Positions 17,472 through 37,362 of a stretch of DNA of 53,605 bases are shown here, one piece after another. Made by a program: the position numbers and the translations under genes. Position 1 is the stretch's first letter; each line of letters opens with the position of its first letter. The notes beneath the pieces are model-generated. The model saw only the letters and a list, made by a program, of their open reading frames with translations, did not search any database and had not been told where the DNA came from. The DNA is from a virus (Duplodnaviria; Caudoviricetes), in the IMG/VR virus record IMGVR_UViG_3300009418_000023, positions 1 through 53,605 of that record. One strand, given 5' to 3'.

Positions 17472-17491
17472 GGATCTTTGGTCTTCAGTAC

Positions 17492-19324: not shown

Positions 19325-19394
19325 GATAAACACTCCTGTGTGAGGGATTCTAAGGATGACAGTACAAACACTCATCCTATAAAAGTGTCAAAGG

Positions 19395-19422: not shown

Positions 19423-19447
19423 TATACTTCTCTTCTTCCAGCATTAC

Positions 19448-19963: not shown

Positions 19964-20011
19964 AACTAACTCTCCTTGTGTTAGAGGTATGATTTACATC
20001 ATCTCTGAATA

Positions 20012-20040
20012 GGACACACGGGATTTCTCGCCGTGTGTCC
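20012..20040. other. Perfect 10-bp inverted repeat
   Basis: GGACACACGG-9 nt-CCGTGTGTCC, intergenic. Confidence 0.6.
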
Positions 20041-20070
20041 GTTTGGTTGTTAAGTCCAGTTAAGGACTGA

Positions 20071-20280
20071 CTAGCTCACACGGATCACGGTGACATGATC
20101 CAGATGAGTAGCGAGTTCGCCTTCCCAGCTTGTGAGAAGCCGACGGTTACGAGGATAAGGATTGCCGAGCACGGTGTCAATCGCACGTGCCGTGAGCTGC
20201 TTGTCATCCTCAGTGATACCTTCAGCGTTCTTATCTTCTGGGGAAGGTGGAACCCAGAACCTTCGGGGGGGGGCGGTCAT
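20071..20280 (-). CDS. Hypothetical protein
   Basis: GAGGAGG RBS. Confidence 0.7.
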   Translation of the reverse strand: MTAPPRRFWVPPSPEDKNAEGITEDDKQLTARAIDTVLGNPYPRNRRLLTSWEGELATHLDHVTVIRVS

Positions 20281-20479
20281 AATGACCTCCTCGTGTTAGA
20301 GTTATGACCTACGCAGGTCATCTCAAAAGTCAGCACCACACCTTACGGCGAGGGCTGGTACACTGAGACAATACTAAAACCACTCTTCCCGACTTCCCCT
20401 CCATGAGAAGCATGGTAGTACTCTCTTAAGTCTCTCCGGATACCAGCGGTACCCGGAGAGGTGACTCGGCGTGATCACC

Positions 20480-20815
20480 TCATCGTTGATGGGTGATCAA
20501 TCCCGACTGATCGGGAAGCACAATCGCATCCCTACGCTTCTTCATCTGGACTTGATCCAGAGTGTCCGAAGTTTGAGGACCAACGATTAGCGTAACTGGA
20601 CTGCGCTTTCTATAGAAACGCTCAGCCACTTCGTCACTGACCCACTGATCCTGATGCCACCTAAGTGGAACCAGAGTTACAGTCTGTTCAGAACCTTTCG
20701 GTTCGTCCCTGACTAAGGAAGCACAGATGTGTCCCCAGTGATGCCAGATCACAAGTGTCAGCCCAGCTAGTGCAAGCACTAACGCCGATATGTTGTACCA
20801 TTGAGCATCGCTCAT
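20480..20815 (-). CDS. Membrane-anchored hypothetical protein
   Basis: AAGGAG RBS; N-terminal TM helix. Confidence 0.75.
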   Translation of the reverse strand: MSDAQWYNISALVLALAGLTLVIWHHWGHICASLVRDEPKGSEQTVTLVPLRWHQDQWVSDEVAERFYRKRSPVTLIVGPQTSDTLDQVQMKKRRDAIVLPDQSGLITHQR

Positions 20816-20857
20816 TATAGTACTCCTTTGGGTTGTGACCCCGAAGGGTCAGACCAT

Positions 20858-20947
20858 TGGCCTGTCTCATCAGTGCTGGGCGGCCAGTCCCAACAAACAC
20901 CATACTCCTCAACCATCGGCGGTTGAGGACGTAGGGGGTGTTTCGAC
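20858..20947 (-). ncRNA. Type II hammerhead ribozyme
   Basis: GUC-GAAA-[stem III CACC...GGUG]-UU-[stem I UGUUGGG/CCCAGCA]-CUGAUGA-GAC; loop I UGGCC can pair with the 3' GGCCA. Confidence 0.85.
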
Positions 20948-20987
20948 TATTCATCCGCAGTCGAAGCGGTGTCGAGTGCGTCAGGGT

Positions 20988-21173
20988 TTACTTACCCTGT
21001 GCAATTGCAACGCACTTCGGACACAGTGGGATCTCGATGCGGTTTCCATCCGCATCACAGACAGCCACTGTGATGCACGCGCAGAGGTGACTCTGCTCGT
21101 GCGATATGAAGCGCCCGCAATCGGAACACTGCTCTTGCGAGCTAGTGTTACGCCGGACATCGGATGATACCAT
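20988..21173 (-). CDS. Small Zn-finger-like protein
   Basis: AGGAGG RBS; CSDC...HLC...CPKC. Confidence 0.65.
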   Translation of the reverse strand: MVSSDVRRNTSSQEQCSDCGRFISHEQSHLCACITVAVCDADGNRIEIPLCPKCVAIAQGK

Positions 21174-21282
21174 AGTATCACCTCCTGTGGGTTGTGACCC
21201 TACAAGGGTCAGGCCTTAAGGGGATAGGGGGGGAGGGCATACCCTCCACCTCATCCATACCCACGGAGAAATTCTCGACCCC

Positions 21283-24200
21283 CTAGTCGATTATTCCCGC
21301 ATCTCTATCGTACCTTCTTTGTTGTGCCTTACGTTCTCTATCCTCCCATTCGGGACTCCCCACAGGAGCTCCTACAAGGCTCTCAGGAGCTCGCTCAGGC
21401 CGCGTCTCTCGGATAGCCCCCACTATATCTCGTCTCATAGGACGCGGTGTGGGGGCAGCAGGAGCCTGTGAGGGGACGCTAGGAGCGGTTGTCTTAGGAG
21501 CCGGTGCAGGGGTTGCTGCAGGATTGGGATATTGCATCTTAGGAGTACCTGTAGCACCGGAGGGATTATACCCCTGAAGGAGTTGTTGTTGGATTGCTGG
21601 TGGGAGGTTTTCAAACTTAGGTTCCCACCCTAGTTCTCTAAGGATTTCTCGTAAGTCTGCGGCATATTGGGGTAAATTAGATGTCTCAGAAAAAGAACCA
21701 TAGGTTGCCCATTTTTTGTTTGATGATTTAGCACCCCTGCTCATTGAGTTGTTTTGCCTTTGCCACTCTTCGCCCATAGCGGAGAAGAATATAATCCTAG
21801 TTAAGGCATCGCCTATAACCGGAAGTGTTCTCGTTAGCATTATCATTGATGCCCAATCTGTATCTTTTTCATCATCTGTCCAGCCATCTATCAGCTTCTT
21901 AACATTATACAAGAAGGAGTTCATTGCACCCACTGGTACAAATCCAAAAGCTTCTCGGTGTGTGTTTGCGTAGATACCTACTACGGTTTCCATAAGCAAG
22001 CCTATATATCTACCAAAGTGTGGTAATCTAGCCATCATAAACAATGATTGTTTAACCGGGTCTTCTTCCCATCCCTCGATGATGTCTTCTACAGGATATC
22101 CTGCAGCTACAAGCAACAGTGACATATACAATGAATCAACCATAGCATATGAAACCCAATGAAGGGCGTTTCGTCTAAGGCTGAATCTTTGGTTTCTTCG
22201 TCCAATTTGCTGAGAAGCAAATAATACAGGATACCGCCTAAAGGTTTCAAAGATAAGATCCCAGCTACTATTGCCCGTAGCTGTATCAAAGGGATTAGGG
22301 TCGACTAAGATTTCATGGATATATCTTTTTTCTGCTCTTCTTAATCCTGAAATTATATCAAGGTATTGTTTGTATTCTGGATCTGTAGTAGCCCACTGAG
22401 GACCGCCTTCCCATGCCTCACCTTTATTCAAATTAGTTAATAATCCTCCTAAGCTGTAATACTCATCTCCCTTAGGACTGTTAACCATCTTAGCAAGGAT
22501 ATCTACATTATCGTTTGTCAGAACACCCTCATTCATTAAATACATAATGTTTGCTGCGTCTGTTCCGGGCAGGCCTACTCTTGACATTAACTTAGAAATA
22601 ATCTTACGCCCATCTACAGTATCCCATTCTTTAGGATCAACCTGCTTATGTAAACGCAAGAACTCTTTTAGCTTACTGCCATCTCCACCAACCGTAGCTT
22701 GCTGTAACCATCCTCTAAAGATCGTAGCTCGTGAGGTAGCAATCATTTGATGCAGTATTCCTGCAAGGTGCATATTACGCTCACCTAACCACTGAGGTAA
22801 CCTTTGATACCACTCCGACCTTACATCAATATCTGGCCGAGCATAGTCTGGTATCCGACCTTGGTTAAATATTCGGATAATCTCTGCCATATCTCTTGCA
22901 ACATTCTTTCTAATGTTAGGATCAAGTCCCATAAGAGGGGCAACGGCAGCCTTAATAAAACCACCCATACTACCTCGACCAAGTAGTTGATCAATCATAT
23001 TCATAGTATTCTCTACTACAAGCGTAGCCATAGTAAGGTTTGTGCCAAAGACAATTCTAACAACATCTGGAGCATATCTTGTAATAAAGTTTAGAGTTTC
23101 ATCGGCTGAGTCTCTATTACTTTCCTGTTTACCTAAAATAGTATTATACTTGATCTCTAATACACCCATTGCTTTAGTAAGTATATCACTGTCTTTAGCA
23201 CTTATACGACTACCGTCACTATTAAAAAGATTACCCATACCCAGTACATTCCTAAAGATACCTAACACATCGCCAGTAGTAGCCTTAATCCCATACTTAT
23301 CCATATACATAGATTGCTCTGCAATCCTCTGCCCAAGATGTTTCATGATACCATCTGAAATTGTTTCTGGCCCCCAGACAAGCATATCTGCAATCGCAGG
23401 ATTATTCATAACTTCGTGGACCGGAGGAATAGCCCAATCATTAGAGAAGTATATCTTTCGTCCAGCACCATTCATAATGTTTGCCACATGAACACTTACA
23501 GGACTGCTGATAGTAGGAGACTGCTGTCTTGCGGATTTTCCTTCAACGACCCCAAGAGTCGCAAGTCTGGAATCTATAGACTGACCTCTAAGTATATCTA
23601 GACGAGCTTGATTAGGTTTCTTTGCCTCAGCCCTATACTTACTCCACCAACCAGCGGTAATTCGTGTGTTTTCACTATTAAACCCCAAGTAGTCAGCACT
23701 AAACTTATTCTTTTTGTATCGCATATACCTCATAATTTGAGCTATAGCTGGTATAACATAGTTAACATAAGTATTGTGTTGTTCAATAGTAGAAGTTTTA
23801 TTTGTAAGTAAGCTACGGTATTCTTCATTTGTTTTAATACTTGCAAGTCTAGTTAGTGTGCTATCATAAGATGTGCTTCTTTCGCTCTGGCGTTGCCTCA
23901 TTAATTCGGCCATTGCCATAATTTCTTTCCAGAGTTGTGGGTTCTTAGTTTCTAACTCAGCTAACTCTTTTAGCCCTACTTCGGGATCAGCCAAATGAGG
24001 AAGCTCGCCCATTGCGTATAAAGTATAAGGACACATTCTTCTTGTTTTAAGATCTATATTCTGAGATTCCGTAACAATACGATCTCCAATAACCTTACCC
24101 ATTTCTTCTCTAAAGTTATTATAAACCGGCTGATCTTGTACCTTAGCATTCGCAAACATAAAAGGAATAGCTTCATCAAAAGCTCTATCCATAACACCTA

Positions 24201-27200
24201 CTTCGACCCCCATATGGTTTACAATACCTAGTAATGCAGCATAGTTAGTTACAATATTATCTGCTTCCTTTCTTAGCTCTGTGCTGTTTACAAGCAATGC
24301 ATCCGTGTACTCATACGCTTCTCCTGCCATTTGTTTTACTAACTTAGTCCACACTTCTTTAGCAAAGGTATCTCTTGTTTTCTCGTTTCCGGCAGTATTC
24401 CCTAATACCTGAGTTCTAAATCGAACGGTTGATTCAATAGGCCCAATAATATCATCGTAGACTCTTTCCATAGAGTTTCTAATCTCAGTAGATATTTGGT
24501 CAATCTGCTGAACAGAACCTAAGACATGGGGTATGCCATCCATATTACCCCAATGTCCTGCCATAGTACTCATTGAGTTGTCAATCATTGTTGATAACAT
24601 AACAAGTAAAGTAAAGGGAGAATTCCAAGTAGCACCGGATTCAGTACTACCAGTAGCAAGCATAGTCATAAACTGTTTTACTTTAGAACCAATACCACCC
24701 GGCCTGTTAAAGTAAGGAAGCTGCTGTATTGCCTTAGTAGCTTCAGCCATAAAGCGTCCGTCATTCCCCCGCATCATTTTAGTCATATCCATCAGTATCT
24801 GTGTAGCAAGAATCTGTTGATCATGAGGAGTACCTTCAACGAATATTCTCTTAACATCAAGAAGATCTGGACCATATGTTTCAACTGAGAAGTCCCCGCT
24901 TCTAACACTATATTGATTCTTAAGGTTTTCCCGACCTATAAGGAATTCACCTGTAGTAATACCAAGCGGTGTTATTTTATTACCGCCAAGAGTATCACGC
25001 CTATTCTCTAGCTGACCACGCTCCTTACTCAACTCCTCCCACTCCTTTTCAAACTTTCCGGATTCACTTTCAGGTGCCTCGGGAGTATAGAAGTTATGGT
25101 GTATAGCGTCCTCTAATTCACCCATTCTTCTCTTAACTTCATCAAGAGATTGTAGGGTAGCTAGTAATTCGTTCTCTGTATTCTCCACCGTAGATTGTTG
25201 TTGTGTTCCTTCTGTAGACATATACAGCGGTCCCATATCAGGGTTACCTACATCAGCTATCGTATTTCTACTTGTCTTGGTTGCATCCTGTCCTAGAGTT
25301 CTTCTGATTAAGTTAATGGCTCTTTCGTATTCAGCTGGCTCGGTTGATTTAAAATCTGAGAATACAGAAGATACTCTATCTAATATCTTACCAATAAAGG
25401 CAAAGATTTTATCAATTATGGTTTGTGTCTTTGCAAAGAATCCCGCTTCTTCGGAAGTTAGAGGAGTATTGGCTTCAACCTGCCTTAGTAATTCTAAGGA
25501 ATCGTGTACTAAATGATACCCTGTCAGGGCCGCAATAAACTCTTCGCCCGTAGTATCGTTCATAATTCTAGCATACTCATCTTGAGCAGCCTTATTCCAC
25601 TGGCCGTTATGGAAAGCCATAACAAGTTTCTTCAGTGTTCCGCCACCCTGTTTACTCCGCTCGCGTAAGAATAACGTTCTCCACTCTCTATAGTGGTATG
25701 AATCATTCTCGATAAACATCATTCTACCAATATGGCCAATCTCCTCAGCCACTAAATACGCCACACTTAATGCATCTCTTCGCCCAACTAATTGATTACC
25801 AATTCTAATTGTATACCTACCACCTGATTTTTCTGCGGATCCTCTTCGCTGTTTCCCAGAATTATCAACCCACTCACTATCTAAGAATTCAAAATTAACC
25901 TCAAGAACCATATCAGGAGCATACTTAAACCACTTACCAAGAATTGCTCTTATCATTCTAGCTTGAGCCTCAGAAAGGCGACCACCGTCAACAGCCTCTT
26001 TTATCTTAAGGGATAGTTTACCCAACTCAGGAACAGCAGATGAGAAGTTATCGTGATTTCGAAGATCTCTGCTTTTAAGATGCAGCTCATTAAATAAATC
26101 CGGATCTCTATCAAACACATGAGTATCTAATACAGAAGCTAATGCCGCCTCTGCTGAAGAATGCATCTCGGTAGACATATCTTCAATATCATATATCTCC
26201 TGCAGATAAGCAAGGAAGTCAATAGTAATATCGGAATCACCAGAAACAGTACGTTCTCCCTCGCTAATCTGATCTACGTATGATCTAGCATCCCAATAAA
26301 AATCATTAAACTGTTGACTATCGGTTGCATTTAGGATTGACATAAGCTGATTAAACTCACCCTTAACTCTAAGGTAAGCACTAGAAACATCAGCATCAAA
26401 CTTTTCTTTTTCTGCCGCTGTTTCTCGTGACATCAGGGGGAAGAATACTCTAACCTCGCCCATCTCAATATCGGGTTGCCGTAACATAAGCCCAAGTATA
26501 ATAGCTCGTATGGTTGCTGGGTTTTTAATATTCCCATCAGTTAGTTGTAGTGTAGTTACAAGGAGTTCTTGAATAGTTCTATGCTCAAGATCAACCCCAT
26601 CTGTATACACATCCATATAAGATTCTCTAACCCCAGTTAGATCATGAATAAGACTCAACCCTCTTGAGTTAGCTTGTGAGTGAGGGCTACTATGTTCCAT
26701 TTCTATATTCCAAGTTGGAACAATAGTTTTAAAGGTTGTCTTTGCTTTTCCTTTTACCGTCCCTCGGAACGGTCCTTCAGAGGCAGCCTCAATATCAACC
26801 GGCGTTGTTCGTCTAACTAATTCCTTTAGAATTTTTTCGTTAAACTCTGCATCTTCTGAAATATATTTGTTATATAGATCCATAGATGCTTCCGGCGATC
26901 TTTCATTTATCTCCGCAATTTTTCTTCTAATTGCGTCTGCCTGTATAGGAGATCCAGAACGCTCAAAAGCTAAACTCAAATCTTTCTCGGTAACCACTAC
27001 TGGTTCACCATTAACTCGCGTGCCTCTCTTTTTTAAGGCAGCAGCAAACATACCCTCTTCACTCTTCTCACCGAGTTTTAATCCTTTAAGCAAACTATTT
27101 AAAGTCCAGTTTAGACTTTGTGTAATGTCACCACCTAAAAACTTAGAATCAGCGAGCATGTTGTTTTGCATTAAGTCAATACTAAGTTCAGCAACTATCT

Positions 27201-30200
27201 GCGCAGTATTAAGATCATTAGCAAGGATACCTAACTTTCTAAGGTCAAAACTATTTCCATTATAAGTAACTACCTTGCCTCCCGCTAACAAATGCTGCTT
27301 CAACATCTTTAATAAAGCTCTAGCTTCACTTCCGCTTACTGAACGAGTAGGCGAGAAATGCTTACCCTTTTTAAACCCCACTCTTCCTGCTGCTTCAAGT
27401 GTTCTTTCAACACCACCAATACCTACAATACGTTGTTCCAAGTCCATCGTAGTTTCAATATCAATAGATATAACATTATCTGTATCGTATATCCAATTAG
27501 GGTTGCTTTGGATTTCAATAATATTAGCTGCTTCAGCTTCATCTAAACCTAGCGATGTTAAGATTTCTACTGCTTTGGTAGGATTATGTTGAGACCACAT
27601 AGTTCTTTCTGGTGCAGCCCTAGCCATAATATTCATCTCAAGCAAACCTAAACTAGATAGTCTCTTCATAGCTGTAGTAATTGGAGAGATTAAAGACTCA
27701 ATAAAGAAGGGTAATGCATTAGGTCTAAGTCCAGCATCTGGTCTATAATAATTAATCCAGTCTACAACTCTAGGTTTAATATTACCAGATGAACGAGAAC
27801 CATCAACAAGCATATGAGCAACGGTGTGTCCTGATTCAACACGATCTACTATAATCTCCATTGCTTCACTTAAGACTCTTTCTCTGTTCATCTTTTCAGT
27901 TTCACTGTAGCCGAAGTAATCAGCCATCTCTTCAGCATCAGATCGAACTAACTCAGGCTTACCTTCGGCATTAGATCGATAGCGACCTGTTGGCTTGTTG
28001 GTACGCATCGCGGTTTCTATTCTTTCGATAAAAGGATAGTTCTTATGTGACGAAAGCATCAGTAAAGCACCCATTGGTGTAATACCGAGTTTCATGTTTG
28101 TTCCGATTACCGTTCTTGGAACTCTCATAAGCATAGTAAAGGGGCCACCCATAGGATTACGTAAAATCATTTTATCAGTACGTTCATCCTTCGTTGGCTG
28201 CTGCTGTATTAACTTAACAAGGTCATTTCTACCCTCAACACTCTCTACAATAAAATCAAAGGAGAATACAGGATCATTTGCTAGTACAGCTTTCTCTCTA
28301 GCTACATTAATAATAGCTTCTCTGTGATCTGGAGGAATAGCGTTAAAGGATTGTATATCTCTTTGATTAGCAATAACTCTTAATTGTTTCTTTAGTGCGG
28401 GCTCCTTAACAATACCTATATATGTTTCTATAGCTTCAGATATATACCCATCCCACAGTACTCCTACAAGAAACTCCAACTCATCCACAGACTGAACAAG
28501 TAAGGGATGTATGGCCGTCTCTTCTAGTTTAATTGTTTCGCCCGGATTAACCCCCTCTTCAATTATAAAGTGCTCTGTAGGAACTAAGCTTTTTTTCAAA
28601 GCTTTGTGAATAAGGGTTGGTCCGGATAAGACAGAGAATGGATTATTCTCCGAATATGGACTTGTCAGGATATCATATAGCGTTCTATCTGCTAAGTCTG
28701 GATTTAAAATACCAATTTCATGTCCCTTAGTTTCCATAAGTAAGGAAGACATCTCTTTGTATCTAATATCCCGAGATAATTGGAACAGCGCGTGGAATCC
28801 TTCGAGGTATGTATTACGGGCTTGTAGTAGTTTCTCTTCGTTAGTTAGTCCTTTATCTCCATAGCGTACAGCAGAAATGATCTGGTCCATTTCATGTTCA
28901 AGTTTTTGATCAAACCTATATACTAAATACAAGTACGGTACCATTTCTGGATCAAGCATCTCTGCCTCAAAGCCACGTTCTATTGCCCACTTACTCATCT
29001 TCATCTCAACAACATTAGCTACCATCTCAGGTGCATTAGCATCTAATCCCATAAGATAGTCTAGATAATCAGACTTAACATCTGGACCCATTGGAAGAGT
29101 TTCTCTATTCCAAGGTTTCTCGAATCCTCTACTAGTTACTGGAATTAAGTGATCAGGGTTTTCTAAGGGTTGGTCTAACATAGCCGATACTTCTTCAATA
29201 GGACTCATCATCTCTCGTTCAGCGGCATGATAAGCTTTATTCTGAAGGTATAGGTTGCCCTTATTGTGATAAGGCATTCTCCTAGTTTCAGGAGCCCAAG
29301 ACATGTATCCCCTTGGTTTGTCTGTAGACTCGAATACCATATCTTCTGTATCGTGTCGTAGTTCTGTCATTGTATGTTCTGCGGACCCTCTGAAGGTCAT
29401 AGGATGTCCTGCGACTGGGACCAGTAAACCTATACCCTTAGAGAAATAATCTATGCTTGCTTGGTTTCGAGAACCATCAGCATTCCTAACACTATCTTGT
29501 TGTAGTCTTTGCGCATTAGTATGATCTATAGCAGCTTCTTGAGAATGCTCCCACCACTGACTCAATACTTCGGCTTCGAGTTCATCCATATTATCTTCAG
29601 CTTTATATTTTGACAGAGGCGGCTTCTCGGGTTCTGTAACTCTAAGAAGCATTTCATTTCTCATCATAAGAACAGCAATAGTATGATCCATTCTCTTGTG
29701 CCACTCCGCTACTTCAGCGTCATTATCAAAATCAACCATTCTCATTATGGGGTTGCCATATTTATCTAACCTTACCTTCCCATTTTTATCCCTAACCGGA
29801 ATCTTTTGATGAGGATTATCTTCCATTCTCCACTGACCCAACGGAGATTCGCCTTCTACGTCTACAAATACTTGCTTACCGTTTACATATTCGTAGGGAT
29901 TTTCAGACCACTCCATGATCTTTCTACCAATCTTAGCAGGGTTATCCCAATCTTCATCTCTAATCTCTTCTGCTACGAAACTTTTAAACGCATCTTGATT
30001 AGTTTGGATTCTAGCAAACATCGTGTTGTGATGGTGTCTATTCATATTAGAACTTGCAGAATAGGTTCTATAACTCTCAAGACCGGGTAAGAAGATTTGA
30101 TACAGAATAAAGTTCTGAATTCCAAGAAGATCTTCTTCATTAAATCTCTGGTGATTAGTTGCTGCTTGTGCCTTTAATACATCTACAGCAACTCTGAACC

Positions 30201-33200
30201 CCGTAGAGTTTACTGTATTTAATGCTCTGAATAATTGATTATGTTTCCAGTGCATACCCTTTGGTTGCAGTAATTGGCCAACCTCTTCCCTTTCAGCTAA
30301 AGTTAGCTTTCCTCCTTCTCCCGGCTTTGCCCTAGCATCTGCTTTCCTAATGATTGCGTCAGCTTTCATCAACCTACTATTCTTATACTTCTCCTTAAAT
30401 GCTTCTACAGTCATCTGAACTCTTTCGCCATCCGGTCCTATCATCATCTCACGCTTAGCTAACATAGCAATATTTAGATCCAGTTGTCGGCGTAAATAAT
30501 CTCTTTTCATAGCGGGGTTATTTTGATCTGTTTTCTTAATCTCCTTGTTCCGCATACTCTTTACAGTTGAAATCCAATCTGTTATATGCCTATCTGTCAT
30601 GTTTTCGTGCATTGACAGAATTTTTCTTGCTTCTTCCCGAAGACCCTCAATACCCAAAGCTACATCAATAACAGCAGCGTTCTCACCCGCTATATGGTCA
30701 AATATAGAATGTCCAAACAAAGCCATAACATGTGATATACCTTCAGATTGATCCTTAAAATTAAAACCAAACTCTTGCCTCAGCCTAGTCAGGATACCTA
30801 CAAACATTGGATCGGTTTGTAGTTCTACCCAGCCTTTCCATCCCATAGTATATAGCCTACGCATAACTTCTGGTTTCCAGAATTCACGCATCAGCTTCAT
30901 CTTCCTAACCATATCAGGATCAGAGCCTTCATTACTAACGTAATCAGTATACTTAGTATGATCATCGATTCCCAACGTAGCTAACTGATCATAAAACGTA
31001 ACCATTGGAGAGAGAAGTTCGCCATATTCTGGGTGTGCTAAAGCCTTTCTTCTAACGGTTTCAGCAAAACCTAAACCAGCTCTGATATAATAATCTTCAG
31101 CCTCAATAGACATATTCATTTTATTCCTTAACTCACCCATAGCGGTAATAGCTGCTTCGCTACCGAGACTTAGAATCTTAGTTACAAATAAACCATTAAA
31201 CTTCTTATCCAAGTAAGTCTTTGGTGAAAGGATCCTTTTATAGAACTCTGGGTTTTCCCAATACTTTGGCCCAAACTCTTTATAATGTTCTTTTGCATAG
31301 GCTTGTTCTGCTTCGGTAGCCTGTTGAATAACATCATTGGCTAATCCTTCTAAGTGCATGTTCATGCTTTCTAAAGCAAGTATAGAAGAAATACCACTCA
31401 TTGGAACAATAGTAGGTAAGCCTGTAGTAAGCTCAGGGTGTATCATTTTAAAAGCTGCATCACCCTCTGAAGTATAGACTAACCCCGGACCAGCCGCCCA
31501 ACGAGCATCATGGAGGAAAGCATAAGCAATATTTGCTGTATCTAATAGAACCTCAGAAAGAATATTCTTAAGTTCTTCTCTAGTAGTAATTCTATCGTTT
31601 AGTCTTACATTAATAATAGGAGGCAATAACCTAGCATCTGGTTGAAGACTTCTAGAAACAGGTCTACCCGGCACAGCACCATCTTTATCTTCTAGATAAG
31701 CGTTGTATTCTATAATATCGTTCTCATCAATCTCTTCTGTAAAGATAAACTCTAATCGTTTCCTTACAATAGCATCTTCAATCACAAGAGCAACAGCCTC
31801 AGGTCGTTCTGGAGCAAAGGAAGTCATGTGTCCCCGTAACATCGGGTGTGTCCGGACTGTCTCTCCTTCTTGCGGCTCATCAAAACGATTCTCTTCTTTT
31901 CTTTCTGATCTATATTCTGGGGATTTTCGTCTCTTGGTAACTATTTCTTTAGTTTTTAGTCTGGTTACTAAAGCAAAGTCAACCAGTTCCCAACCAAGCC
32001 GTCTTGCTGGTTGCCAGCCCCGAGTACCGTCCCCCATACTAATGATCTCGTCTCTAGTAATTAGGGTGTGTTCATTATCACCCTCTGCAAGCCTATCAAG
32101 AATTATACTAGCTATTCTATCTAGGTCTTTTAAGTCTTCTGGAATCTTAAAGTAAGCATATATATCTTTCTTCTGTCTTTGAGATTGCATAAAGAGTACT
32201 TCTAATTGCTCAACTATACCCTTTCTAACCTCCTCAAGATATTTCATCTCTGCTTCTGCTCTTGATTCCGGATCATCTAGATCAAAGGTAATTGTTTGGT
32301 CAAGATCGGGAGAAAGATTATCTGTTAAATCAATTAGGAAACCATACTGATTAAACAAATCATCATCGACTGCTCTCGACGCTTTCATAAGTCTATCGGT
32401 AAACGCAATGGCAGTATATAACCCAATCTTAGATTTAGGATCTCTATCATAAACCATAACATCTTCTTCTGTAGCCCTAGTTTCAGCATTCTTTGCTATT
32501 ACTGCCTGATGTGCCGTGTCTCGTTTTTTGATAAAGGTTACTAATCCTTCATCCCCCTTGAAGTCATGCAACAGACTTTTTAAAAGGTTCTTAGGAAATC
32601 CACCTTCCCCTGCTAAAGTAAGGGCTCGAACATCCTGTACAAACCCCCAATCTGTTAGATCTGGGCTAACGAGAGTCTTCCCTTCAGCTTCAAGGCGGTT
32701 ATTGATGCCCGAGATATATCTAAATAATCCTAACTGACCTTCTTCTGACTCGAAAGCCTTAAAGAGTTTGTGTATAATTTGCCTTGCTTCTAGTTCGTTA
32801 ATACGGCCATCCTGAAGTGCCGTCCTAATTTCTGCAACCCATGAATTAGCTTCGTGGATTCTCCACTTCTCCCCCTTTTCCTCAATCCTCTGAAGAACCT
32901 TTTGAACCTTTGCATCACCTTCTTTCGCTACAAGTCTCCGTCCTCTAATGCGGCGAACTAAGTCTGTGAGAGACTCTTTTGAGATTGCTTTAAGATCACC
33001 ATTAGCTCTCATTATTCTACGAGTAACTAAGGCAATAAGTTTATCTAATCTAACAAACAAAGTATCATACTCAAGACTCAAATCTTCCATCGTTCTGTTA
33101 CTAGGAAACTCCTCGCCTTCTGCATTAACAATAACTTCTCTAAAGACTGCATCATAGATACCATCTGGGAGACAACTATCAACAACGAAGATTGGAACCA

Positions 33201-36200
33201 ATCCTACTTCAGGATCTAAGGCTCTACCCCACGGTCCTTCAAGTACAGATATTAATTGCGAATGAAACTCTTGAAGTGCCATCAACTCTTCTGCTAATGT
33301 AAATGCATACTCTTCAGGAACTATTCCTCTATCTATACTTTCTTTGTTTATCGCGGTTTTGTTTGCAGCTTCAGTATTAGTTCGATCAATAGCTGGAGCT
33401 TCTGTAGCTTGGTTAATCCCCCACTGAGAAGCAGTAATTGGCCTGTTACTTACACGACTCCAATTAACATCTTTGAAGTAGTTCCTCTTAATAGACTTTA
33501 TATATGTCTCTCGTTCTTTAGCAGCCTCTTCAAATATAGCTAATGCTTCTTCCTTACTATAAACAATTGGATCCTCATCGCTATCTGCTCTCTCATCTAT
33601 TTCTTTCTTAACCCTGTCTTTGGTAGCACTTTCAGGTAAGAACGCTCCTAATAAGTCTTCAGCAGAAATAGTCTCTGTGGTTTCGAGTTTCTTTGTTAAT
33701 ACATGTCTTCGTATTGTTAAAGTCTTTAGTTCTTTATTACGATAATCTAATACTGCCCTGATTGTTTTCAGCTGATAAGACGCAAAACCATATTTCCTAG
33801 CCATATCTAGTTTGTATCTTAAGGATATCTTTTCACGCTTTCTATCTAACCTCTTCATATCCTCTTCTAATTTCTCCAATTGTCTATATTCATCTGAAGG
33901 TTGAATTACCTTAGTAAATATTTCATTCTGCATTCCAATAAGACCCAAAGCTAATGCTCTTAAGTCATCAAGCTTAACCCGCCCACTCTTTATACCTTCT
34001 AGGAGACTAGCTTTATTTTTTTCATTACTCTTTATAGTTTCCCATGTCTGTACAGCCTCTTCAAGATCGGCCCATTCTTCAGGAGAAACATCATTCTTAT
34101 CCATTTCCCCCTTTTGTCTCCACTTTGGGTGTTTCCCTGCTTCTGCTTCTGCCGCAATCGTATCAACAAAGGTTTTACTTAAGGTGCCAACTACTAGAGA
34201 AAGTTTAGATATCCTTTTACCCTTTTCACCTACATACTTTGTATCAATAGCATCTCGTATCTCTTTAACCTTTTCAGTTAACTCACCGATCTCCTTCTTT
34301 ACGTCTCTTAAAGCTTCACTATCGGATTCAACATCCTGCCACGCAGCAATACTTTCATCAAACTCGGAGATTAACTCGTCCATTTCAGCAATAAGTTCGT
34401 CAAGTTTATTCCTTATTTTTGGATCGGTAGTTCCTTCTCGTTCTTCTTCAAGAGCTGCCTTAAGGCTTTCAGCTTCCTCTTTCTCTTTTGTTGTTTGGAC
34501 AACTGCGGATTGTTGCTCTCCTTCTTGTGCTCTAAGACTATCTATCCTAGCGTTTACAAGACCCTCCCCCTCAAGATCTTTCTTTCGCCATGCTTCCTCT
34601 TCTTCAGTTAGTTTTTTGTCGGCAATAATCTTCTTAGCAATACGATCAGAAATCTCCCAGTCAGTCTCTGGAACCTTATCAGTTACCTCCTTGATCTCAG
34701 CATCAATCTTTTTAATAGCTACAGTAAGTTGCCTAACTGTTTCCTTCTTACTTGCAAAATCTTCAAGTTCAAACAACTCTTCTACCGTAGTAACTTTTTC
34801 TCTGTCTATCTCAACTTTTTCCATACCCTTTTTTCTCTTGTGAGATATTTTACCAGTCTTAGAGTGCTTCCAATAAAAACCCATACGAAATATTTCACCA
34901 GCAAAGGATTCTACTATACCGGTAATTTGTGCTTGTATCTTACCCTTCCTCTCAACTTTATCTTGTATCCCCGCCATTGCCTTTTCTCGTTCAGCTTGAG
35001 CTACTCCAGCCTCCTTTAGTCTCTTGGCTCTTTTTCTCGCCGCCCTCATTAGGCTAACCTTACGTCTAAGTGTAGACGGTTTTTTTGGAGCTAGCTGTGG
35101 TGACTCCTTTATCTGTTTTTTAATAATACGGTCTACTGCTTCTTTATGCTCATTATATATCTTCTCTTCTTCCTTAGTTAATGTCACATCACCTCTTTTT
35201 TTAATAGCAATATCAACTAAGACAGAATCTTCCTCCTCCTCCTTCGCTTGAATTAAAGAGTCAACATCTTCAGCCTTTTGTTTAAGTCTTTCTAACTCTG
35301 TTGTATTAGCCTCTAAAGAAAGTTTAAGTTTCTCTTCCTTTTCTCTAAATTTTTCCTCAACCTCAACCTCAATATCATGAACTACTTTAAGCTTTTCTGC
35401 AGCTGTGGCTGTATCAAAATTAAGTCCTTCTTTATCCATCCTCACACGAACCATACTCTCTACATTATCATCAACATATATTTCCCAAAGATCTTCATCA
35501 GAAATTTCATCTGTTTGATTAAGCCACTCCTCTGGGGTAAAGTTAGTTCCGTTTTCCTCATTCAACTTACGTACATATCTTGCCACCCGAAGCCTAGTTT
35601 TTGCTATAGCTGTACGTTCTCCTAGTTGTTTAGCTAAAGTCTGGGCTTCTGGTCCTCCTAATCTTTGAATTAGTCTATTAGCAATCTCATCTAGAAGTAC
35701 ATCATCAGATATCTTCTCCCCATCCAAATCATTTTTAATTTCTTCTAACAGACTAAGAATACTGGTTACATCATCATATGTATTAACCCCGTCTCTGATC
35801 TGCCAAGGATCAAGAACAAAACCAAGAGGTCCATCCATTAAATCATTTAAGTCAATATCTCCACCTTCTTGTCGAATAGAGTTTAAGGAATCAACGACTG
35901 AATCACCTAACTCATAATGCTCTATAGCTGCTAAGATAGGATTATCACTACCCCTTGCGGCTGCCTTCCAAGCTTCTGTAATACTAGACCTAAGTCTAGC
36001 ACCAAGTGGAAGACTCATAATACCTTGACCAATTATACCACCAGCTGCTGAAAGAGGAGCGTTTACTGTATACTTCATAGCTGTTCCAAGGATTGGGTTT
36101 GCTACGACAGAGAACACAGCCTCCATCTTTGCTTCAGCCCAGATACCACCTAAATCATACTCATCAATAAACCCTCTTTTAATTTTCAAAGTTTGGTTTA

Positions 36201-37362
36201 TACCTTCAGCTAAAGCACCCTCAACGAAACCCTCTCCTGCATTAAGAGGAGAACTATATAACATTCCCCTTAAGCCTTTTGTTTTAGCTAGCCTTTTACC
36301 AAGATCTGGGGCAATCTTACTAAAGATAGTTGTGCCTATGTTTTCTGGAAGCCAGTCAACAATCTTAGCTATCTTTGTTGCATGTGTAGAAAGCTTAGTA
36401 ATATTAGTAATCCCTTTAGCAATAGTAGCAGCTCCGTGTACTTTTTTAAGTACCCGACCCGCAAAGAAGCCAGCCGCTATTGGCGCACCAACTCCAAGTG
36501 TTGCTGCTGTAATACCTAAACTAATAACAATAGAGGCAGGCATGTCTGGATCATTTATTAGACCGTCTCTAATAAAAGGCCACGCCGTAAGATTCCAAAA
36601 CTCTTCCATCCCTTCCATCTCTTTTTGGTGGAAGGAGATAGATTGCGCCACTGCCTTATGATCAATAGCCTCATTAATAAAATACATAAAGGCATCTGAG
36701 TTAGTAGCATCTTCTGTTATTTTCTTTAGTCCTTCTCTACCACCAAAATTAAGTTCAAGATAAGCAAGATGACCGGGGCTAGTATCAGCCATAATATCCA
36801 ACATCTTATCAGCACTATAGTTTTCTTGTACATACTCAAATAAATCTTCCGGCTGCTGAAACATTTGGGCAGCAAAACCAGAACCAACATCAACATATCT
36901 ACCAATATCTTTCCAATCACCACCAAACTTAAGCCAGTTACTTTTGGTTGATAAGAATGGCTCAAGAAAGCCTTTAGATGTATCAGATAATCCGGCTTCG
37001 CCCTTTGGATCTTCTATTAGTTCTTGACCCCGTAAAATTCTTTTTGCTGTTAGGTTCGATCTCGCTTGATTATATGTAAAGATACCTCTATGATAATCAT
37101 CTGCAAACGCCATTGATGTTGCAATATTAGCTGGTAGTGTTCCAAACGCATAACCATCCTCATAAGGTATTAGACCCGCACCATACTGTGATTCCCTACC
37201 TTGTTCATAAGGATCAAAAGGAAGTTCTTTTGCTAATCCCCATGCCTCATTTAGTCTCTTACTAAAAGGCGATACCCCTTCTTCATCCACCGCGTACTGT
37301 GACATATAAAACTCAGATAGCCGTGGCAGTTTTGTTGGAATATCAAACTCTGATCGTGGCAT
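21283..37362 (-). CDS. Giant internal virion (ejection) protein, 5359 aa, with putative virion RNA polymerase domain, DEDD exonuclease domain and degenerate zincin motif
   Basis: Last gene of the internal-virion block; AAGGAG RBS; coiled-coil region; YLDKKFNG, EDYY, REFWKPEVMRRLY, NQDAF; DIET/YNGNSFD/YISED; EEIGH...EEF. The ORF is certain, the domain calls are motif-based. Confidence 0.8.
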   Translation of the reverse strand: MPRSEFDIPTKLPRLSEFYMSQYAVDEEGVSPFSKRLNEAWGLAKELPFDPYEQGRESQYGAGLIPYEDGYAFGTLPANIATSMAFADDYHRGIFTYNQARSNLTAKRILRGQELIEDPKGEAGLSDTSKGFLEPFLSTKSNWLKFGGDWKDIGRYVDVGSGFAAQMFQQPEDLFEYVQENYSADKMLDIMADTSPGHLAYLELNFGGREGLKKITEDATNSDAFMYFINEAIDHKAVAQSISFHQKEMEGMEEFWNLTAWPFIRDGLINDPDMPASIVISLGITAATLGVGAPIAAGFFAGRVLKKVHGAATIAKGITNITKLSTHATKIAKIVDWLPENIGTTIFSKIAPDLGKRLAKTKGLRGMLYSSPLNAGEGFVEGALAEGINQTLKIKRGFIDEYDLGGIWAEAKMEAVFSVVANPILGTAMKYTVNAPLSAAGGIIGQGIMSLPLGARLRSSITEAWKAAARGSDNPILAAIEHYELGDSVVDSLNSIRQEGGDIDLNDLMDGPLGFVLDPWQIRDGVNTYDDVTSILSLLEEIKNDLDGEKISDDVLLDEIANRLIQRLGGPEAQTLAKQLGERTAIAKTRLRVARYVRKLNEENGTNFTPEEWLNQTDEISDEDLWEIYVDDNVESMVRVRMDKEGLNFDTATAAEKLKVVHDIEVEVEEKFREKEEKLKLSLEANTTELERLKQKAEDVDSLIQAKEEEEDSVLVDIAIKKRGDVTLTKEEEKIYNEHKEAVDRIIKKQIKESPQLAPKKPSTLRRKVSLMRAARKRAKRLKEAGVAQAEREKAMAGIQDKVERKGKIQAQITGIVESFAGEIFRMGFYWKHSKTGKISHKRKKGMEKVEIDREKVTTVEELFELEDFASKKETVRQLTVAIKKIDAEIKEVTDKVPETDWEISDRIAKKIIADKKLTEEEEAWRKKDLEGEGLVNARIDSLRAQEGEQQSAVVQTTKEKEEAESLKAALEEEREGTTDPKIRNKLDELIAEMDELISEFDESIAAWQDVESDSEALRDVKKEIGELTEKVKEIRDAIDTKYVGEKGKRISKLSLVVGTLSKTFVDTIAAEAEAGKHPKWRQKGEMDKNDVSPEEWADLEEAVQTWETIKSNEKNKASLLEGIKSGRVKLDDLRALALGLIGMQNEIFTKVIQPSDEYRQLEKLEEDMKRLDRKREKISLRYKLDMARKYGFASYQLKTIRAVLDYRNKELKTLTIRRHVLTKKLETTETISAEDLLGAFLPESATKDRVKKEIDERADSDEDPIVYSKEEALAIFEEAAKERETYIKSIKRNYFKDVNWSRVSNRPITASQWGINQATEAPAIDRTNTEAANKTAINKESIDRGIVPEEYAFTLAEELMALQEFHSQLISVLEGPWGRALDPEVGLVPIFVVDSCLPDGIYDAVFREVIVNAEGEEFPSNRTMEDLSLEYDTLFVRLDKLIALVTRRIMRANGDLKAISKESLTDLVRRIRGRRLVAKEGDAKVQKVLQRIEEKGEKWRIHEANSWVAEIRTALQDGRINELEARQIIHKLFKAFESEEGQLGLFRYISGINNRLEAEGKTLVSPDLTDWGFVQDVRALTLAGEGGFPKNLLKSLLHDFKGDEGLVTFIKKRDTAHQAVIAKNAETRATEEDVMVYDRDPKSKIGLYTAIAFTDRLMKASRAVDDDLFNQYGFLIDLTDNLSPDLDQTITFDLDDPESRAEAEMKYLEEVRKGIVEQLEVLFMQSQRQKKDIYAYFKIPEDLKDLDRIASIILDRLAEGDNEHTLITRDEIISMGDGTRGWQPARRLGWELVDFALVTRLKTKEIVTKRRKSPEYRSERKEENRFDEPQEGETVRTHPMLRGHMTSFAPERPEAVALVIEDAIVRKRLEFIFTEEIDENDIIEYNAYLEDKDGAVPGRPVSRSLQPDARLLPPIINVRLNDRITTREELKNILSEVLLDTANIAYAFLHDARWAAGPGLVYTSEGDAAFKMIHPELTTGLPTIVPMSGISSILALESMNMHLEGLANDVIQQATEAEQAYAKEHYKEFGPKYWENPEFYKRILSPKTYLDKKFNGLFVTKILSLGSEAAITAMGELRNKMNMSIEAEDYYIRAGLGFAETVRRKALAHPEYGELLSPMVTFYDQLATLGIDDHTKYTDYVSNEGSDPDMVRKMKLMREFWKPEVMRRLYTMGWKGWVELQTDPMFVGILTRLRQEFGFNFKDQSEGISHVMALFGHSIFDHIAGENAAVIDVALGIEGLREEARKILSMHENMTDRHITDWISTVKSMRNKEIKKTDQNNPAMKRDYLRRQLDLNIAMLAKREMMIGPDGERVQMTVEAFKEKYKNSRLMKADAIIRKADARAKPGEGGKLTLAEREEVGQLLQPKGMHWKHNQLFRALNTVNSTGFRVAVDVLKAQAATNHQRFNEEDLLGIQNFILYQIFLPGLESYRTYSASSNMNRHHHNTMFARIQTNQDAFKSFVAEEIRDEDWDNPAKIGRKIMEWSENPYEYVNGKQVFVDVEGESPLGQWRMEDNPHQKIPVRDKNGKVRLDKYGNPIMRMVDFDNDAEVAEWHKRMDHTIAVLMMRNEMLLRVTEPEKPPLSKYKAEDNMDELEAEVLSQWWEHSQEAAIDHTNAQRLQQDSVRNADGSRNQASIDYFSKGIGLLVPVAGHPMTFRGSAEHTMTELRHDTEDMVFESTDKPRGYMSWAPETRRMPYHNKGNLYLQNKAYHAAEREMMSPIEEVSAMLDQPLENPDHLIPVTSRGFEKPWNRETLPMGPDVKSDYLDYLMGLDANAPEMVANVVEMKMSKWAIERGFEAEMLDPEMVPYLYLVYRFDQKLEHEMDQIISAVRYGDKGLTNEEKLLQARNTYLEGFHALFQLSRDIRYKEMSSLLMETKGHEIGILNPDLADRTLYDILTSPYSENNPFSVLSGPTLIHKALKKSLVPTEHFIIEEGVNPGETIKLEETAIHPLLVQSVDELEFLVGVLWDGYISEAIETYIGIVKEPALKKQLRVIANQRDIQSFNAIPPDHREAIINVAREKAVLANDPVFSFDFIVESVEGRNDLVKLIQQQPTKDERTDKMILRNPMGGPFTMLMRVPRTVIGTNMKLGITPMGALLMLSSHKNYPFIERIETAMRTNKPTGRYRSNAEGKPELVRSDAEEMADYFGYSETEKMNRERVLSEAMEIIVDRVESGHTVAHMLVDGSRSSGNIKPRVVDWINYYRPDAGLRPNALPFFIESLISPITTAMKRLSSLGLLEMNIMARAAPERTMWSQHNPTKAVEILTSLGLDEAEAANIIEIQSNPNWIYDTDNVISIDIETTMDLEQRIVGIGGVERTLEAAGRVGFKKGKHFSPTRSVSGSEARALLKMLKQHLLAGGKVVTYNGNSFDLRKLGILANDLNTAQIVAELSIDLMQNNMLADSKFLGGDITQSLNWTLNSLLKGLKLGEKSEEGMFAAALKKRGTRVNGEPVVVTEKDLSLAFERSGSPIQADAIRRKIAEINERSPEASMDLYNKYISEDAEFNEKILKELVRRTTPVDIEAASEGPFRGTVKGKAKTTFKTIVPTWNIEMEHSSPHSQANSRGLSLIHDLTGVRESYMDVYTDGVDLEHRTIQELLVTTLQLTDGNIKNPATIRAIILGLMLRQPDIEMGEVRVFFPLMSRETAAEKEKFDADVSSAYLRVKGEFNQLMSILNATDSQQFNDFYWDARSYVDQISEGERTVSGDSDITIDFLAYLQEIYDIEDMSTEMHSSAEAALASVLDTHVFDRDPDLFNELHLKSRDLRNHDNFSSAVPELGKLSLKIKEAVDGGRLSEAQARMIRAILGKWFKYAPDMVLEVNFEFLDSEWVDNSGKQRRGSAEKSGGRYTIRIGNQLVGRRDALSVAYLVAEEIGHIGRMMFIENDSYHYREWRTLFLRERSKQGGGTLKKLVMAFHNGQWNKAAQDEYARIMNDTTGEEFIAALTGYHLVHDSLELLRQVEANTPLTSEEAGFFAKTQTIIDKIFAFIGKILDRVSSVFSDFKSTEPAEYERAINLIRRTLGQDATKTSRNTIADVGNPDMGPLYMSTEGTQQQSTVENTENELLATLQSLDEVKRRMGELEDAIHHNFYTPEAPESESGKFEKEWEELSKERGQLENRRDTLGGNKITPLGITTGEFLIGRENLKNQYSVRSGDFSVETYGPDLLDVKRIFVEGTPHDQQILATQILMDMTKMMRGNDGRFMAEATKAIQQLPYFNRPGGIGSKVKQFMTMLATGSTESGATWNSPFTLLVMLSTMIDNSMSTMAGHWGNMDGIPHVLGSVQQIDQISTEIRNSMERVYDDIIGPIESTVRFRTQVLGNTAGNEKTRDTFAKEVWTKLVKQMAGEAYEYTDALLVNSTELRKEADNIVTNYAALLGIVNHMGVEVGVMDRAFDEAIPFMFANAKVQDQPVYNNFREEMGKVIGDRIVTESQNIDLKTRRMCPYTLYAMGELPHLADPEVGLKELAELETKNPQLWKEIMAMAELMRQRQSERSTSYDSTLTRLASIKTNEEYRSLLTNKTSTIEQHNTYVNYVIPAIAQIMRYMRYKKNKFSADYLGFNSENTRITAGWWSKYRAEAKKPNQARLDILRGQSIDSRLATLGVVEGKSARQQSPTISSPVSVHVANIMNGAGRKIYFSNDWAIPPVHEVMNNPAIADMLVWGPETISDGIMKHLGQRIAEQSMYMDKYGIKATTGDVLGIFRNVLGMGNLFNSDGSRISAKDSDILTKAMGVLEIKYNTILGKQESNRDSADETLNFITRYAPDVVRIVFGTNLTMATLVVENTMNMIDQLLGRGSMGGFIKAAVAPLMGLDPNIRKNVARDMAEIIRIFNQGRIPDYARPDIDVRSEWYQRLPQWLGERNMHLAGILHQMIATSRATIFRGWLQQATVGGDGSKLKEFLRLHKQVDPKEWDTVDGRKIISKLMSRVGLPGTDAANIMYLMNEGVLTNDNVDILAKMVNSPKGDEYYSLGGLLTNLNKGEAWEGGPQWATTDPEYKQYLDIISGLRRAEKRYIHEILVDPNPFDTATGNSSWDLIFETFRRYPVLFASQQIGRRNQRFSLRRNALHWVSYAMVDSLYMSLLLVAAGYPVEDIIEGWEEDPVKQSLFMMARLPHFGRYIGLLMETVVGIYANTHREAFGFVPVGAMNSFLYNVKKLIDGWTDDEKDTDWASMIMLTRTLPVIGDALTRIIFFSAMGEEWQRQNNSMSRGAKSSNKKWATYGSFSETSNLPQYAADLREILRELGWEPKFENLPPAIQQQLLQGYNPSGATGTPKMQYPNPAATPAPAPKTTAPSVPSQAPAAPTPRPMRRDIVGAIRETRPERAPESLVGAPVGSPEWEDRERKAQQRRYDRDAGIID

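Follow-up and report, generated by a model that had tools for sequence, protein, structure and literature searches.

This locus raises the question of whether a phage with a T7-like genome carries an RNA polymerase (RNAP) of the phage N4 kind inside one of its virion proteins. T7-like phages are the textbook case of reliance on the host RNAP for early transcription and DNA entry, and single-subunit virion RNAPs are, to our knowledge, known only from N4-like phages (Schitoviridae). A literature search, with subscription journals outside its coverage, also tied these enzymes to N4-like phages only and returned no case from a T7-like phage. We analysed a linear virus record from IMG/VR, 53,605 nucleotides (nt) long and about 79% complete, which is here called the window and has all its long open reading frames (ORFs) on the minus strand. 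An earlier note on this sequence had proposed an embedded N4-like RNAP in a giant ORF of 5359 amino acids (aa), which is indeed open over the whole of the interval given here.

21283-37362, minus strand: giant ORF (P0001), 5359 aa, last gene of the late/structural series
29773-32445, minus strand: conserved central module (residues ~1640-2530), candidate polymerase region, common to all homologues and delimited by phmmer domain limits and alignments

The chances appear about even that this central module is a single-subunit polymerase of T7/N4 type that has diverged very far, borne by the ejection protein of a deep-branching marine T7-like podophage. The evidence for a polymerase cargo is a collinear invariant three-block signature within the module together with hairpins of the N4 P2 type at the right place in the genome.

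Three conserved blocks in the giant protein

The family of the giant protein is small. A word-index protein search returned three relatives from the single sequence (one of them identical) and four from alignment A4, and among 1.84 billion representatives 11 proteins matched at E <= 0.001, seven of them at E <= 1e-10. Scans with alignment A6 found three loci in IMG/VR, and a metagenome scan found five, all of the same lineages; the family stays at about 8-10 lineages after all searches. Full-length relatives are themselves giants of 4662-5012 aa. P0003 and P0004 are the closest to the window protein, at 46-49%, and the central module of the window is 24-25% identical to those of the giants of genomes G001 (locus L083) and G002 (locus L084). 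Searching 50,697 phage records by tblastn with the N-terminal, central and C-terminal parts gave no match, an IMG/VR scan with the single region gave 17 pattern matches, none of them related, and the best hit of an ESM Atlas feature search (0.87) was under the 0.9 lead level, with no polymerase cluster.

Within the central module, three blocks correspond in order to motif A, the D-x-Y element and motif B of single-subunit RNAPs:

31165-31218, minus strand: motif A-like block TYLDKKFNGLFVTKILSL, D2052 and G2057 invariant, family pattern D-x-x-[FA]-[SN]-G
31087-31095, minus strand: D-x-Y block D2090-Y-Y2092, 38 aa after D2052, in 11/11 sequences
30841-30888, minus strand: motif B-like block R2159-x3-K2163-x-P-V-M2167-x3-Y2171-x2-G2174, with R, K, M and Y in 10/10 sequences

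The strings on which the proposal had been built are all present: YLDKKFNG with the D2052 codon at 31207-31209, DYY at 31087-31095, REFWKPEVMRRLY with the Y2171 codon at 30850-30852 and TNQDAF with the D2457 codon at 29992-29994. The distances given for them, 119 aa from the motif A Asp to the motif B Tyr and 286 aa from that Tyr to the supposed motif C Asp, are correct, and the reference residues cited with them also hold. In residues 998-2103 of N4 gp50, positions 559, 666, 670, 678 and 951 are D, R, K, Y and D; in T7 RNAP, D537, Y639 and D812 are shared with the T7-like RNAP that the window itself encodes (described below), as are D569, Y571, R627, K631 and H811.

Conservation was assessed in alignment A7, which holds 11 sequences over residues 1925-2530, ten of them covering motif B. 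Of its 606 columns, 36 are at least 90% conserved, and these include D2052, G2057, K2062 and L2064 of the A-like block, D2090 and Y2092, and R2159, K2163, P2165, M2167, R2168, Y2171 and G2174 of the B-like block. D2052, G2057, D2090 and Y2092 are kept in all 11 sequences, and R2159, K2163, M2167 and Y2171 in all ten that cover them. On this alignment, the residues of A, DxY and B are the most conserved of the family despite an identity of only 22-29% outside the close group. Conservation in homologues, which had been named as a check on the proposal, thus holds for these three blocks and fails for D2457, the supposed motif C.

Compared with the reference enzymes, the A-like block agrees at the pattern level only (Asp, x3-[SN]-G; DGSCSG in T7 and DGVTNG in N4), a D-x-Y lies between A and B, and the B-like block reads R-x3-K-x7-Y-G with its Gly shifted by 1-2 residues. 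DYY is the counterpart of a block found in both reference families, D569-I-Y571 in T7 and D610-x-Y612 in N4-like enzymes, where it is invariant in 6/6. The distant homologues read D-R-S-F-S-G-L and R-E-F-F-K-V-P-V-M-R-R-L-Y-Q-G-G, close to D-G-S-C-S-G-I and R-S-V-T-K-R-S-V-M-T-L-A-Y-G of T7. Counted from the motif A Asp, the offsets are 0/+38/+107/+119 in the giant, 0/+51/+107/+119 in N4 and 0/+32/+90/+102 in T7, which bears out the claimed N4-like spacing in the A-to-B distances (+107/+119).

The protein has a single instance of the combined A, DxY and B pattern (at 2052), which also turned up in 11 of 5000 shuffles that kept its composition. Limited to the 36 conserved columns the pattern still matches, as do none of 200,000 random column placements; R-x3-K-x7-Y alone was found in 2324 of 5000 shuffles. 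Both patterns used in these tests were framed after the motifs had been seen.

Two further stretches of the giant protein were noticed outside the central module. Residues ~3300-3400 (27163-27465, minus strand) have a weak match to RNase_H_2, of the RNase H/DEDD-type exonuclease superfamily (E 0.0011, 19.4 bits against a cutoff of 22), in which D3301, E3303 and D3373 (a DIET-type string) are invariant in three close homologues; the stretch has no sequence match in the PDB and may be a second cargo domain. Homologues also have a HExxH string (consensus HEIAH in alignment A1, HELAH in A6) at residues ~3872-3877 (25732-25749, minus strand), where the window protein reads AEEIGH, with Glu in place of the first His. 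This site could be zincin-like and degenerate in the window protein.

Probable ejection gene series and early hairpins

The genes preceding the giant form a series of the kind that encodes ejected proteins. The terminase gene is followed by ORFs of 257, 347, 329 and 1430 aa, after which the giant ORF stands. The presumed ejection proteins among them are:

37401-41693, minus strand: ORF of 1430 aa with 1 Cys, presumed gp15-like ejection protein, directly upstream of the giant, no family match
41693-43718, minus strand: ORFs of 329 and 347 aa with 0 Cys each, presumed small ejection/internal proteins from their position and cysteine counts

This small/large/giant order mirrors gp52-gp51-gp50 of N4 and gp14-15-16 of T7, and it recurs in three related loci (L082, L083 and L084), in each of which an ORF of 1270-1631 aa precedes the giant gene. 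Ahead of this large ORF, L082 and L083 have ORFs of 350 and 354 aa, and no ORF of at least 300 aa is listed at the place of the small ejection ORF in L084. In agreement with the earlier note, the giant thus occupies the gp16 position, at the end of a gp14/gp15/gp16-like series that its relatives also have.

The products of this series are also nearly free of cysteine. The giant has 2 Cys in 5359 aa, its homologues P0003, P0004, P0005, P0006, P0007 and P0011 have none and P0012 has one, and the upstream ORFs of 347, 329 and 1430 aa have 0, 0 and 1. Ten of 12 other window proteins counted contain 0.5-3.2% Cys (11/813 in the T7-like RNAP, 11/565 in the terminase and 14/627 in a 627-aa ORF), and the nozzle and the 257-aa ORF 0.3-0.4%. 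N4 gp50, gp51 and gp52 have no cysteine, nor have T7 gp15 and gp16. The available parts of PMC3715699 and PMC3821669 describe absence of cysteine as a trait of virion RNAPs and link it to passage through tail and periplasm. Cysteine depletion supports ejection of the giant and of the three ORFs upstream, and is silent on polymerase activity.

We hold with good confidence, from gene series, size and cysteine depletion, that the giant is an ejection protein of the gp16 position, that of IVP-D (internal virion protein D). It follows gp14- and gp15-like genes and is large, Cys-depleted and, in low-confidence models, helical; Pfam, PHROGs and a PDB profile search showed no sequence or profile similarity to IVP-D. 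An RNAP inside a protein of this position is the known architecture of N4 gp50, according to the accessible portions of PMC4819975 and PMC13434306, and a polymerase in the giant would therefore be analogous to a known design and involve no new principle.

Downstream of the giant gene are a few Cys-rich ORFs, then a terminator-like hairpin and then an intergenic region of 421 nt, followed by the first small early-side ORF (16108-16386). The elements of this region are:

16746-16774, minus strand: intrinsic-terminator-like hairpin closing the preceding late genes
16687-16697, 16629-16639 and 16594-16606, minus strand: three tandem hairpins with 4-5-bp stems and a 3-nt loop, candidate N4-type early promoters
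16675-16704, minus strand: sigma-70-like promoter TTTACA-18-TATAAT, 11/12 consensus positions, with hairpin 1 in its spacer

The three hairpins are the only GC-rich hairpins with a 3-nt loop in the 421-nt region and read GGC-TCC-GCC on the coding strand and GC-GGA-GC on the template strand. All three window copies of GGCTCCGCC lie in this region on the coding strand, where 0.06 would be expected. N4 promoter P2, which was located in the N4 record upstream of gp2, has exactly this template heptamer, GCGGAGC; an oligonucleotide given in the consulted part of PMC13492108 shows its template strand as GAAGC-GGA-GCTTC, and the same hairpin scan recovers the N4 hairpins upstream of gp1 and gp2. Each of the three copies has -8G, -9C, -10G, -11G and -12A, and at the sequence level they agree with N4-type promoters in stem (4-7 bp), 3-nt loop, purine at -11 and template -8G. 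Shuffled windows averaged 0.128 hairpins with an N4 heptamer, and only one in 2000 had three or more. Three early hairpins with a stem of 4-5 nt and a 3-nt loop, together with a Cys-free giant virion protein, are the grounds on which, in the part of PMC3715699 seen, the N4 strategy was inferred for phages LUZ7, LIT1 and PEV2.

The cysteine depletion and the P2-type hairpins, both of them new beyond the earlier note, agree with a co-ejected polymerase of the N4 kind, for which the hairpins would be promoters. The overlap of hairpin 1 with the sigma-70-like promoter bears on how this region may be read. The rrnB promoter is reported to have lost its activity when an N4 P1 hairpin stood between its -35 and -10 elements (PMC4496689, as far as its available text goes), and hairpin 1 could be a natural switch between the host RNAP and a hairpin-reading enzyme.

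Missing elements and alternative readings

A polymerase of this kind would need a second catalytic acid beside D2052, for which the following positions were considered:

29986-30003, minus strand: TNQDAF (D2457), previously taken as motif C; D in 4/8 lineages, not conserved
30121-30144, minus strand: F2407-x3-D2411-L-L-G2414, alternative motif C candidate, the best-conserved Asp after B, +240 from Y2171
31507-31521, minus strand: invariant D1952 in AFLHD ([FH]-[IL]-[HSQ]-D), 11/11 sequences

The D2457 column has D in P0001, P0003, P0005 and P0006/L082, A in P0004 and P0011, Q in P0007/L084 and E in L083. Because it varies across lineages, D2457 is not a catalytic residue of the family, and its assignment as motif C is not upheld. 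D2411 (F-x3-D-[LFW]-L-G) is in column in eight of nine sequences, with a one-residue shift in P0005, and the 'IHD' of D1952 resembles motif C of T7, yet lies 100 aa before motif A. Judged from the alignments, D2411 and D1952 are candidates for the second acid. Two other strings were set aside. The string DFDND at 2544-2548 resembles the metal motif of two-barrel RNAPs, is not conserved in P0003/P0004 and belongs to an insertion absent from the distant group; F-R-A-L-N-x2-N-S-T (2378-2390) matched T7 residues ~315-343 at E 0.32, which is neither significant nor collinear and gives a hint for a permuted arrangement only.

Several results weigh against a polymerase in the giant. No motif C collinear with A and B was found in the alignments, and the candidates D2411 and E2505 are without the hydrophobic strand that usually precedes the acid. 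No T/DxxGR motif, expected 110-135 aa upstream of motif A, was seen by eye at 1915-1945 of the alignment, where the family has P-x2-V-G-G-x-L. Apart from the sub-cutoff RNase_H_2 match, Pfam (E up to 0.1) and PHROGs gave nothing for either half of the protein. Neither the motif region nor P0005, P0008, P0010 and P0014 matched Pfam at E <= 10, RNA_pol included; phmmer with residues 1500-2800 had no match in the PDB, and a PDB profile search with alignment A4 gave four matches, the best at E 0.35 and none relevant.

Profile comparison by hhalign points the same way. The family profile against 45 N4-like mini-vRNAPs from IMG/VR gave a non-significant E of 0.86, and against eight T7-like RNAPs an E of 0.32 with no alignment in register, whereas the control of T7-like against N4-like profiles reached E 0.0041, with 322 columns aligned and T/DxxGR, A, DxY and B all in register. 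Hhalign therefore sees the link between T7 and N4 and not a link to the giant-protein family, which is, on these profiles, further from T7 and N4 than those are from each other, or unrelated to them. Restricted to the motif B block, the best local matches had motif B in register and were also non-significant (E 0.69 to the N4-like profile of 45 sequences, E 0.073 to a merged T7+N4 profile of 49); at a low alignment threshold D-x-Y also came into register, as a weak match. Single sequences (N4 mini-vRNAP and the T7-like RNAP of the window) gave no signal.

Structure prediction did not give a confident fold. AlphaFold2 with an 11-row alignment gave low-confidence models for residues 1630-2700 (predicted local distance difference test, pLDDT, 53.1; predicted template modelling score, pTM, 0.27) and 1925-2530 (pLDDT 57.7, pTM 0.37), probably because the family is limited to about 8-10 lineages. 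The confident parts of both are almost all helical, and the motif A and 'IHD' regions are at pLDDT < 50. Foldseek of the two models against the PDB listed 0/55 and 0/26 entries at E <= 0.001. Five N4 mini-vRNAP entries in the first search (E 2.9-4.8, TM ~0.05) are noise, and T7 gp15/gp16 chains (three entries in the first search) appeared at E 0.9-8.9 only; neither was given any weight.

The hairpins, too, can be read otherwise. Since the phage has a complete T7-like RNAP and a near-consensus sigma-70 promoter, early transcription could fall to the host RNAP, as it does in T7, and the three hairpin copies may be duplicates of one element. Syntenic regions of G001 and G002 have two and three GC-rich hairpins with T[CT]C loops, four are found in the early non-coding region of the window (15955-16697), and nine of the ten coding-strand hairpins of this type across the three genomes fall in early non-coding regions. 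Most of those in G001 and G002 carry CC-TTC-GG, which is also in the T7 terminal repeat, where a hairpin with a 7-bp stem and a 3-nt loop, GTCAACC-TTC-GGTTGAC, lies at 66-82 and 39843-39859 (L132). The hairpins of G001 and G002 are therefore not specific, and with this T7 control they were downgraded as independent support. Only one, in G002 (CCGC-TTC-GCGG), has the GC-TTC-GC heptamer that N4 has upstream of gp1.

The proposal of an embedded N4-like RNAP thus stands in the conservation and spacing of A, DxY and B, and falls short in motif C and in significant profile similarity. Because defining features of the two families were looked for and not found, the giant is not to be filed as a member of the N4 virion RNAP or T7 RNAP family; it may still work like either enzyme.

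The most serious alternative, which we consider unlikely, is that the giant is a gp16/IVP-D analogue with another enzyme or a module handling DNA or membranes. Its likeness to polymerase motifs would be convergent or due to chance, the hairpins would be regulatory, terminator-like or related to the genome ends, and the host RNAP would read the sigma-70-like promoter. The lack of any significant profile or structural tie to a polymerase, the missing motif C and T/DxxGR, the 11/12 promoter sitting on hairpin 1 and the presence of the CC-TTC-GG hairpin in the T7 terminal repeat all favour this view. So do the largely helical low-confidence models, which resemble the internal virion proteins IVP-C/D, and the varied cargo that IVP-D homologues host, such as a methylase-like domain in gp60 of Pseudomonas phage H66 (both as described in the portion of PMC4819975 at hand). 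However, the RNAP signature is matched by eight invariant residues, both in their order and in their spacing, the invariant D/D/Y/R/K/Y set points to nucleotide catalysis, and the hairpin heptamer is that of N4 P2, with strand and location also as they should be.

It is improbable that the module descended from a virion RNAP and is now a non-catalytic pseudo-enzyme, kept for binding DNA or pulling it in. Such a history would explain the failure to find motif C and T/DxxGR alongside the retained A, DxY and B, and it fits with the phage having its own T7-like RNAP and with the fast evolution of the giant, whose identity of 24-25% with those of G001 and G002 compares with 68% for the T7-like RNAPs. 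The strict invariance of a metal-binding-type Asp and of R, K and Y in motif B nevertheless fits a working active site, in which D1952 (invariant) or D2411 (8/9) could supply the second carboxylate. A motif match by pure chance, in a region that is structural only, is just as improbable, for although 5359 residues offer many opportunities, R-x3-K-x7-Y alone is common in shuffles and the patterns were set after the motifs had been seen, the full pattern is rare (11/5000) and coincides with invariant columns, as no random placement did.

Genome context, proposed cascade and known systems

The remaining annotated genes of the window are of T7 type:

51429-53531, minus strand: T7-type nozzle (Pfam, 1e-69)
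47620-51417, minus strand: fibre with a T7 tail-fibre N-terminus (Pfam)
44490-46187, minus strand: large terminase, T7-type, 565 aa (Pfam)
6248-8689, minus strand: full-length single-subunit RNAP, T7-like, 813 aa (Pfam RNA_pol PF00940, 3.5e-82), downstream of the hairpin region
1858-3567, minus strand: primase-helicase, T7-type (Pfam)
3-1184, minus strand: family A DNA polymerase, cut by the window end (Pfam)

The description of the phage as T7-like in its replication and packaging genes is confirmed by these Pfam matches, which extend it to the tail genes. The T7-like RNAP is only ~27% identical to the RNAPs of cultured phages and 68% identical to those of the relatives G001 (93% complete) and G002 (96% complete), and it retains the equivalents of D537, K631, Y639, H811 and D812. 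A k-mer search for its promoters returned coding-biased words only. Thirteen runs labelled marine metagenome contain at least half of the words sampled from the early region, all in DNA contigs; no RNA data with this region were among the sequencing runs listed.

Other features were noted around the early region. G+C is 0.45-0.52 at 14000-22000 and 0.39-0.42 elsewhere in the window, the high stretch spanning a non-coding RNA region, the ORFs after the giant and the Pro/Ala-rich C-terminus of the giant protein. Non-coding sequence downstream of the first early ORF contains a manA RNA motif (Rfam RF01745) at 15636-15831, minus strand (79 bits against a gathering score of 55.2, E 1.9e-19), and a tmRNA-family match covering the tRNA-like part only lies at 15443-15524, minus strand (51 bits against a gathering score of 47). 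Several more T-arm-like GGTTCGA(n)TCC strings occur at 14880-15100, where ARAGORN calls no tRNA. A 55-nt direct repeat (15073-15127 and 15837-15891, 91% identical, 764 nt apart) flanks this manA/tRNA-like region; it belongs to the non-coding RNA region, and no connection was made between it and the polymerase finding. A stretch of ~70 nt downstream of the first early ORF, near-identical in G001 (L123 ~1080-1150) and G002 (L124 ~4385-4455), may represent a non-coding RNA that is conserved. Leu(TAA) and Arg(TCT) tRNA genes are side by side at 11282-11433, minus strand.

Just after the giant gene, the 627-aa Cys-rich ORF (17492-19375, minus strand; 14 Cys) has a faint PHROG match to 'N4-like RNA polymerase' (phrog_2166, E 0.0012, 36 residues) and no PDB match; G002 has an ORF of 641 aa in this position. 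Between fibre and terminase, a 48-nt repeat (46493-46540 and 46815-46862) spans, in two small ORFs that are paralogues, the ribosome-binding site and the start.

Returning to the polymerase reading of the central module, we tentatively propose that a clade of marine T7-like podophages (~62-67 kb) starts infection in the N4 way, with an ejected Cys-free protein of ~5,000 aa whose polymerase has diverged too far for profile methods to tie it to T7 or N4, hairpins bearing the P2 heptamer and then a T7-type RNAP. By analogy with N4 gp50, the giant would be packaged in the virion and leave the capsid unfolded via the tail, and this unfolded exit would explain its near-absence of cysteine. The polymerase module would then arrive in the cytoplasm, with D2052 and a second acid presumably forming its catalytic site, and begin transcribing at the hairpins that the three GC-GGA-GC elements (16594-16697) form by extrusion. 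Early genes would be expressed from there, including that of the 813-aa T7-like RNAP, which would be the second polymerase of the cascade and take over. A more specific form of this proposal, to which perhaps a third of its weight belongs, has the palm motifs permuted in the order C-A-B, with the invariant 'IHD' D1952 as motif C, 100 aa before A. The C-A-B palm order exists in the RNA-dependent RNA polymerases of birnaviruses; we know of no DNA-dependent single-subunit RNAP that has it.

If the proposal is true, the carrying of a polymerase by the gp16-position protein would predate the Schitoviridae or be more mobile than they are. A very divergent, possibly permuted virion polymerase would exist in a T7-like phage beside a complete T7-type RNAP, giving a natural cascade of two polymerases, both of them single-subunit, and a second, very distant branch of hairpin-reading enzymes could be compared with N4 mini-vRNAP in its -11G and -8G contacts. 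If it is wrong, the module is still an uncharacterised, strongly conserved and catalytic-looking one in the largest known class of podophage ejection proteins. In addition, the finding opens to test why ejection proteins reach 5,000 residues; the RNase H/DEDD-like stretch also lies in the giant, and the HExxH string in its homologues.

Among known systems, N4 is similar in several respects. Like N4 gp50, the giant is the last in a small/large/giant ejection series and is nearly free of cysteine (none in N4, 2 Cys here), and it has motifs A, DxY and B with the same A-to-B spacing (+107, +119). Three early hairpins, with a loop of 3 nt and the heptamer GCGGAGC, are common to both genomes, as is a second, T7-type RNAP among the early genes. 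However, the giant has no detectable sequence or profile similarity to gp50 (E 0.86), motif C and T/DxxGR were not found in it, and it is 5359 aa long, compared with 3500 aa. The second RNAP is a heterodimer in N4 and one chain of 813 aa here, the hairpins stand before separate genes in N4 and within 104 nt of each other here, and the rest of the window is T7-like (nozzle, terminase, primase-helicase, Pol A).

With T7 gp16 (internal virion protein D) the giant shares its position in the series, large size, predicted helical content, few cysteines and a T7-like genome. Nevertheless, it is four times longer, has no sequence match to gp16 (Pfam, PHROGs, PDB profile) and shows no lytic transglycosylase domain, and the module follows the terminase gene here, whereas it precedes the fibre gene in T7. 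Relative to RNAPs of the T7/mitochondrial type, H-D-S and D-x-R-G-R were not found collinear and hhalign gave E 0.32 with nothing in register, but K-x2-V-M-x3-Y-(x)-G, and D-x-S-x-S-G in the distant homologues, resemble T7 more than N4. Finally, gp60 of phage H66, as described in the available part of PMC4819975, is also a gp16-position protein that hosts a domain bound for the cytoplasm, its cargo being methylase-like where that of the giant would be a polymerase.

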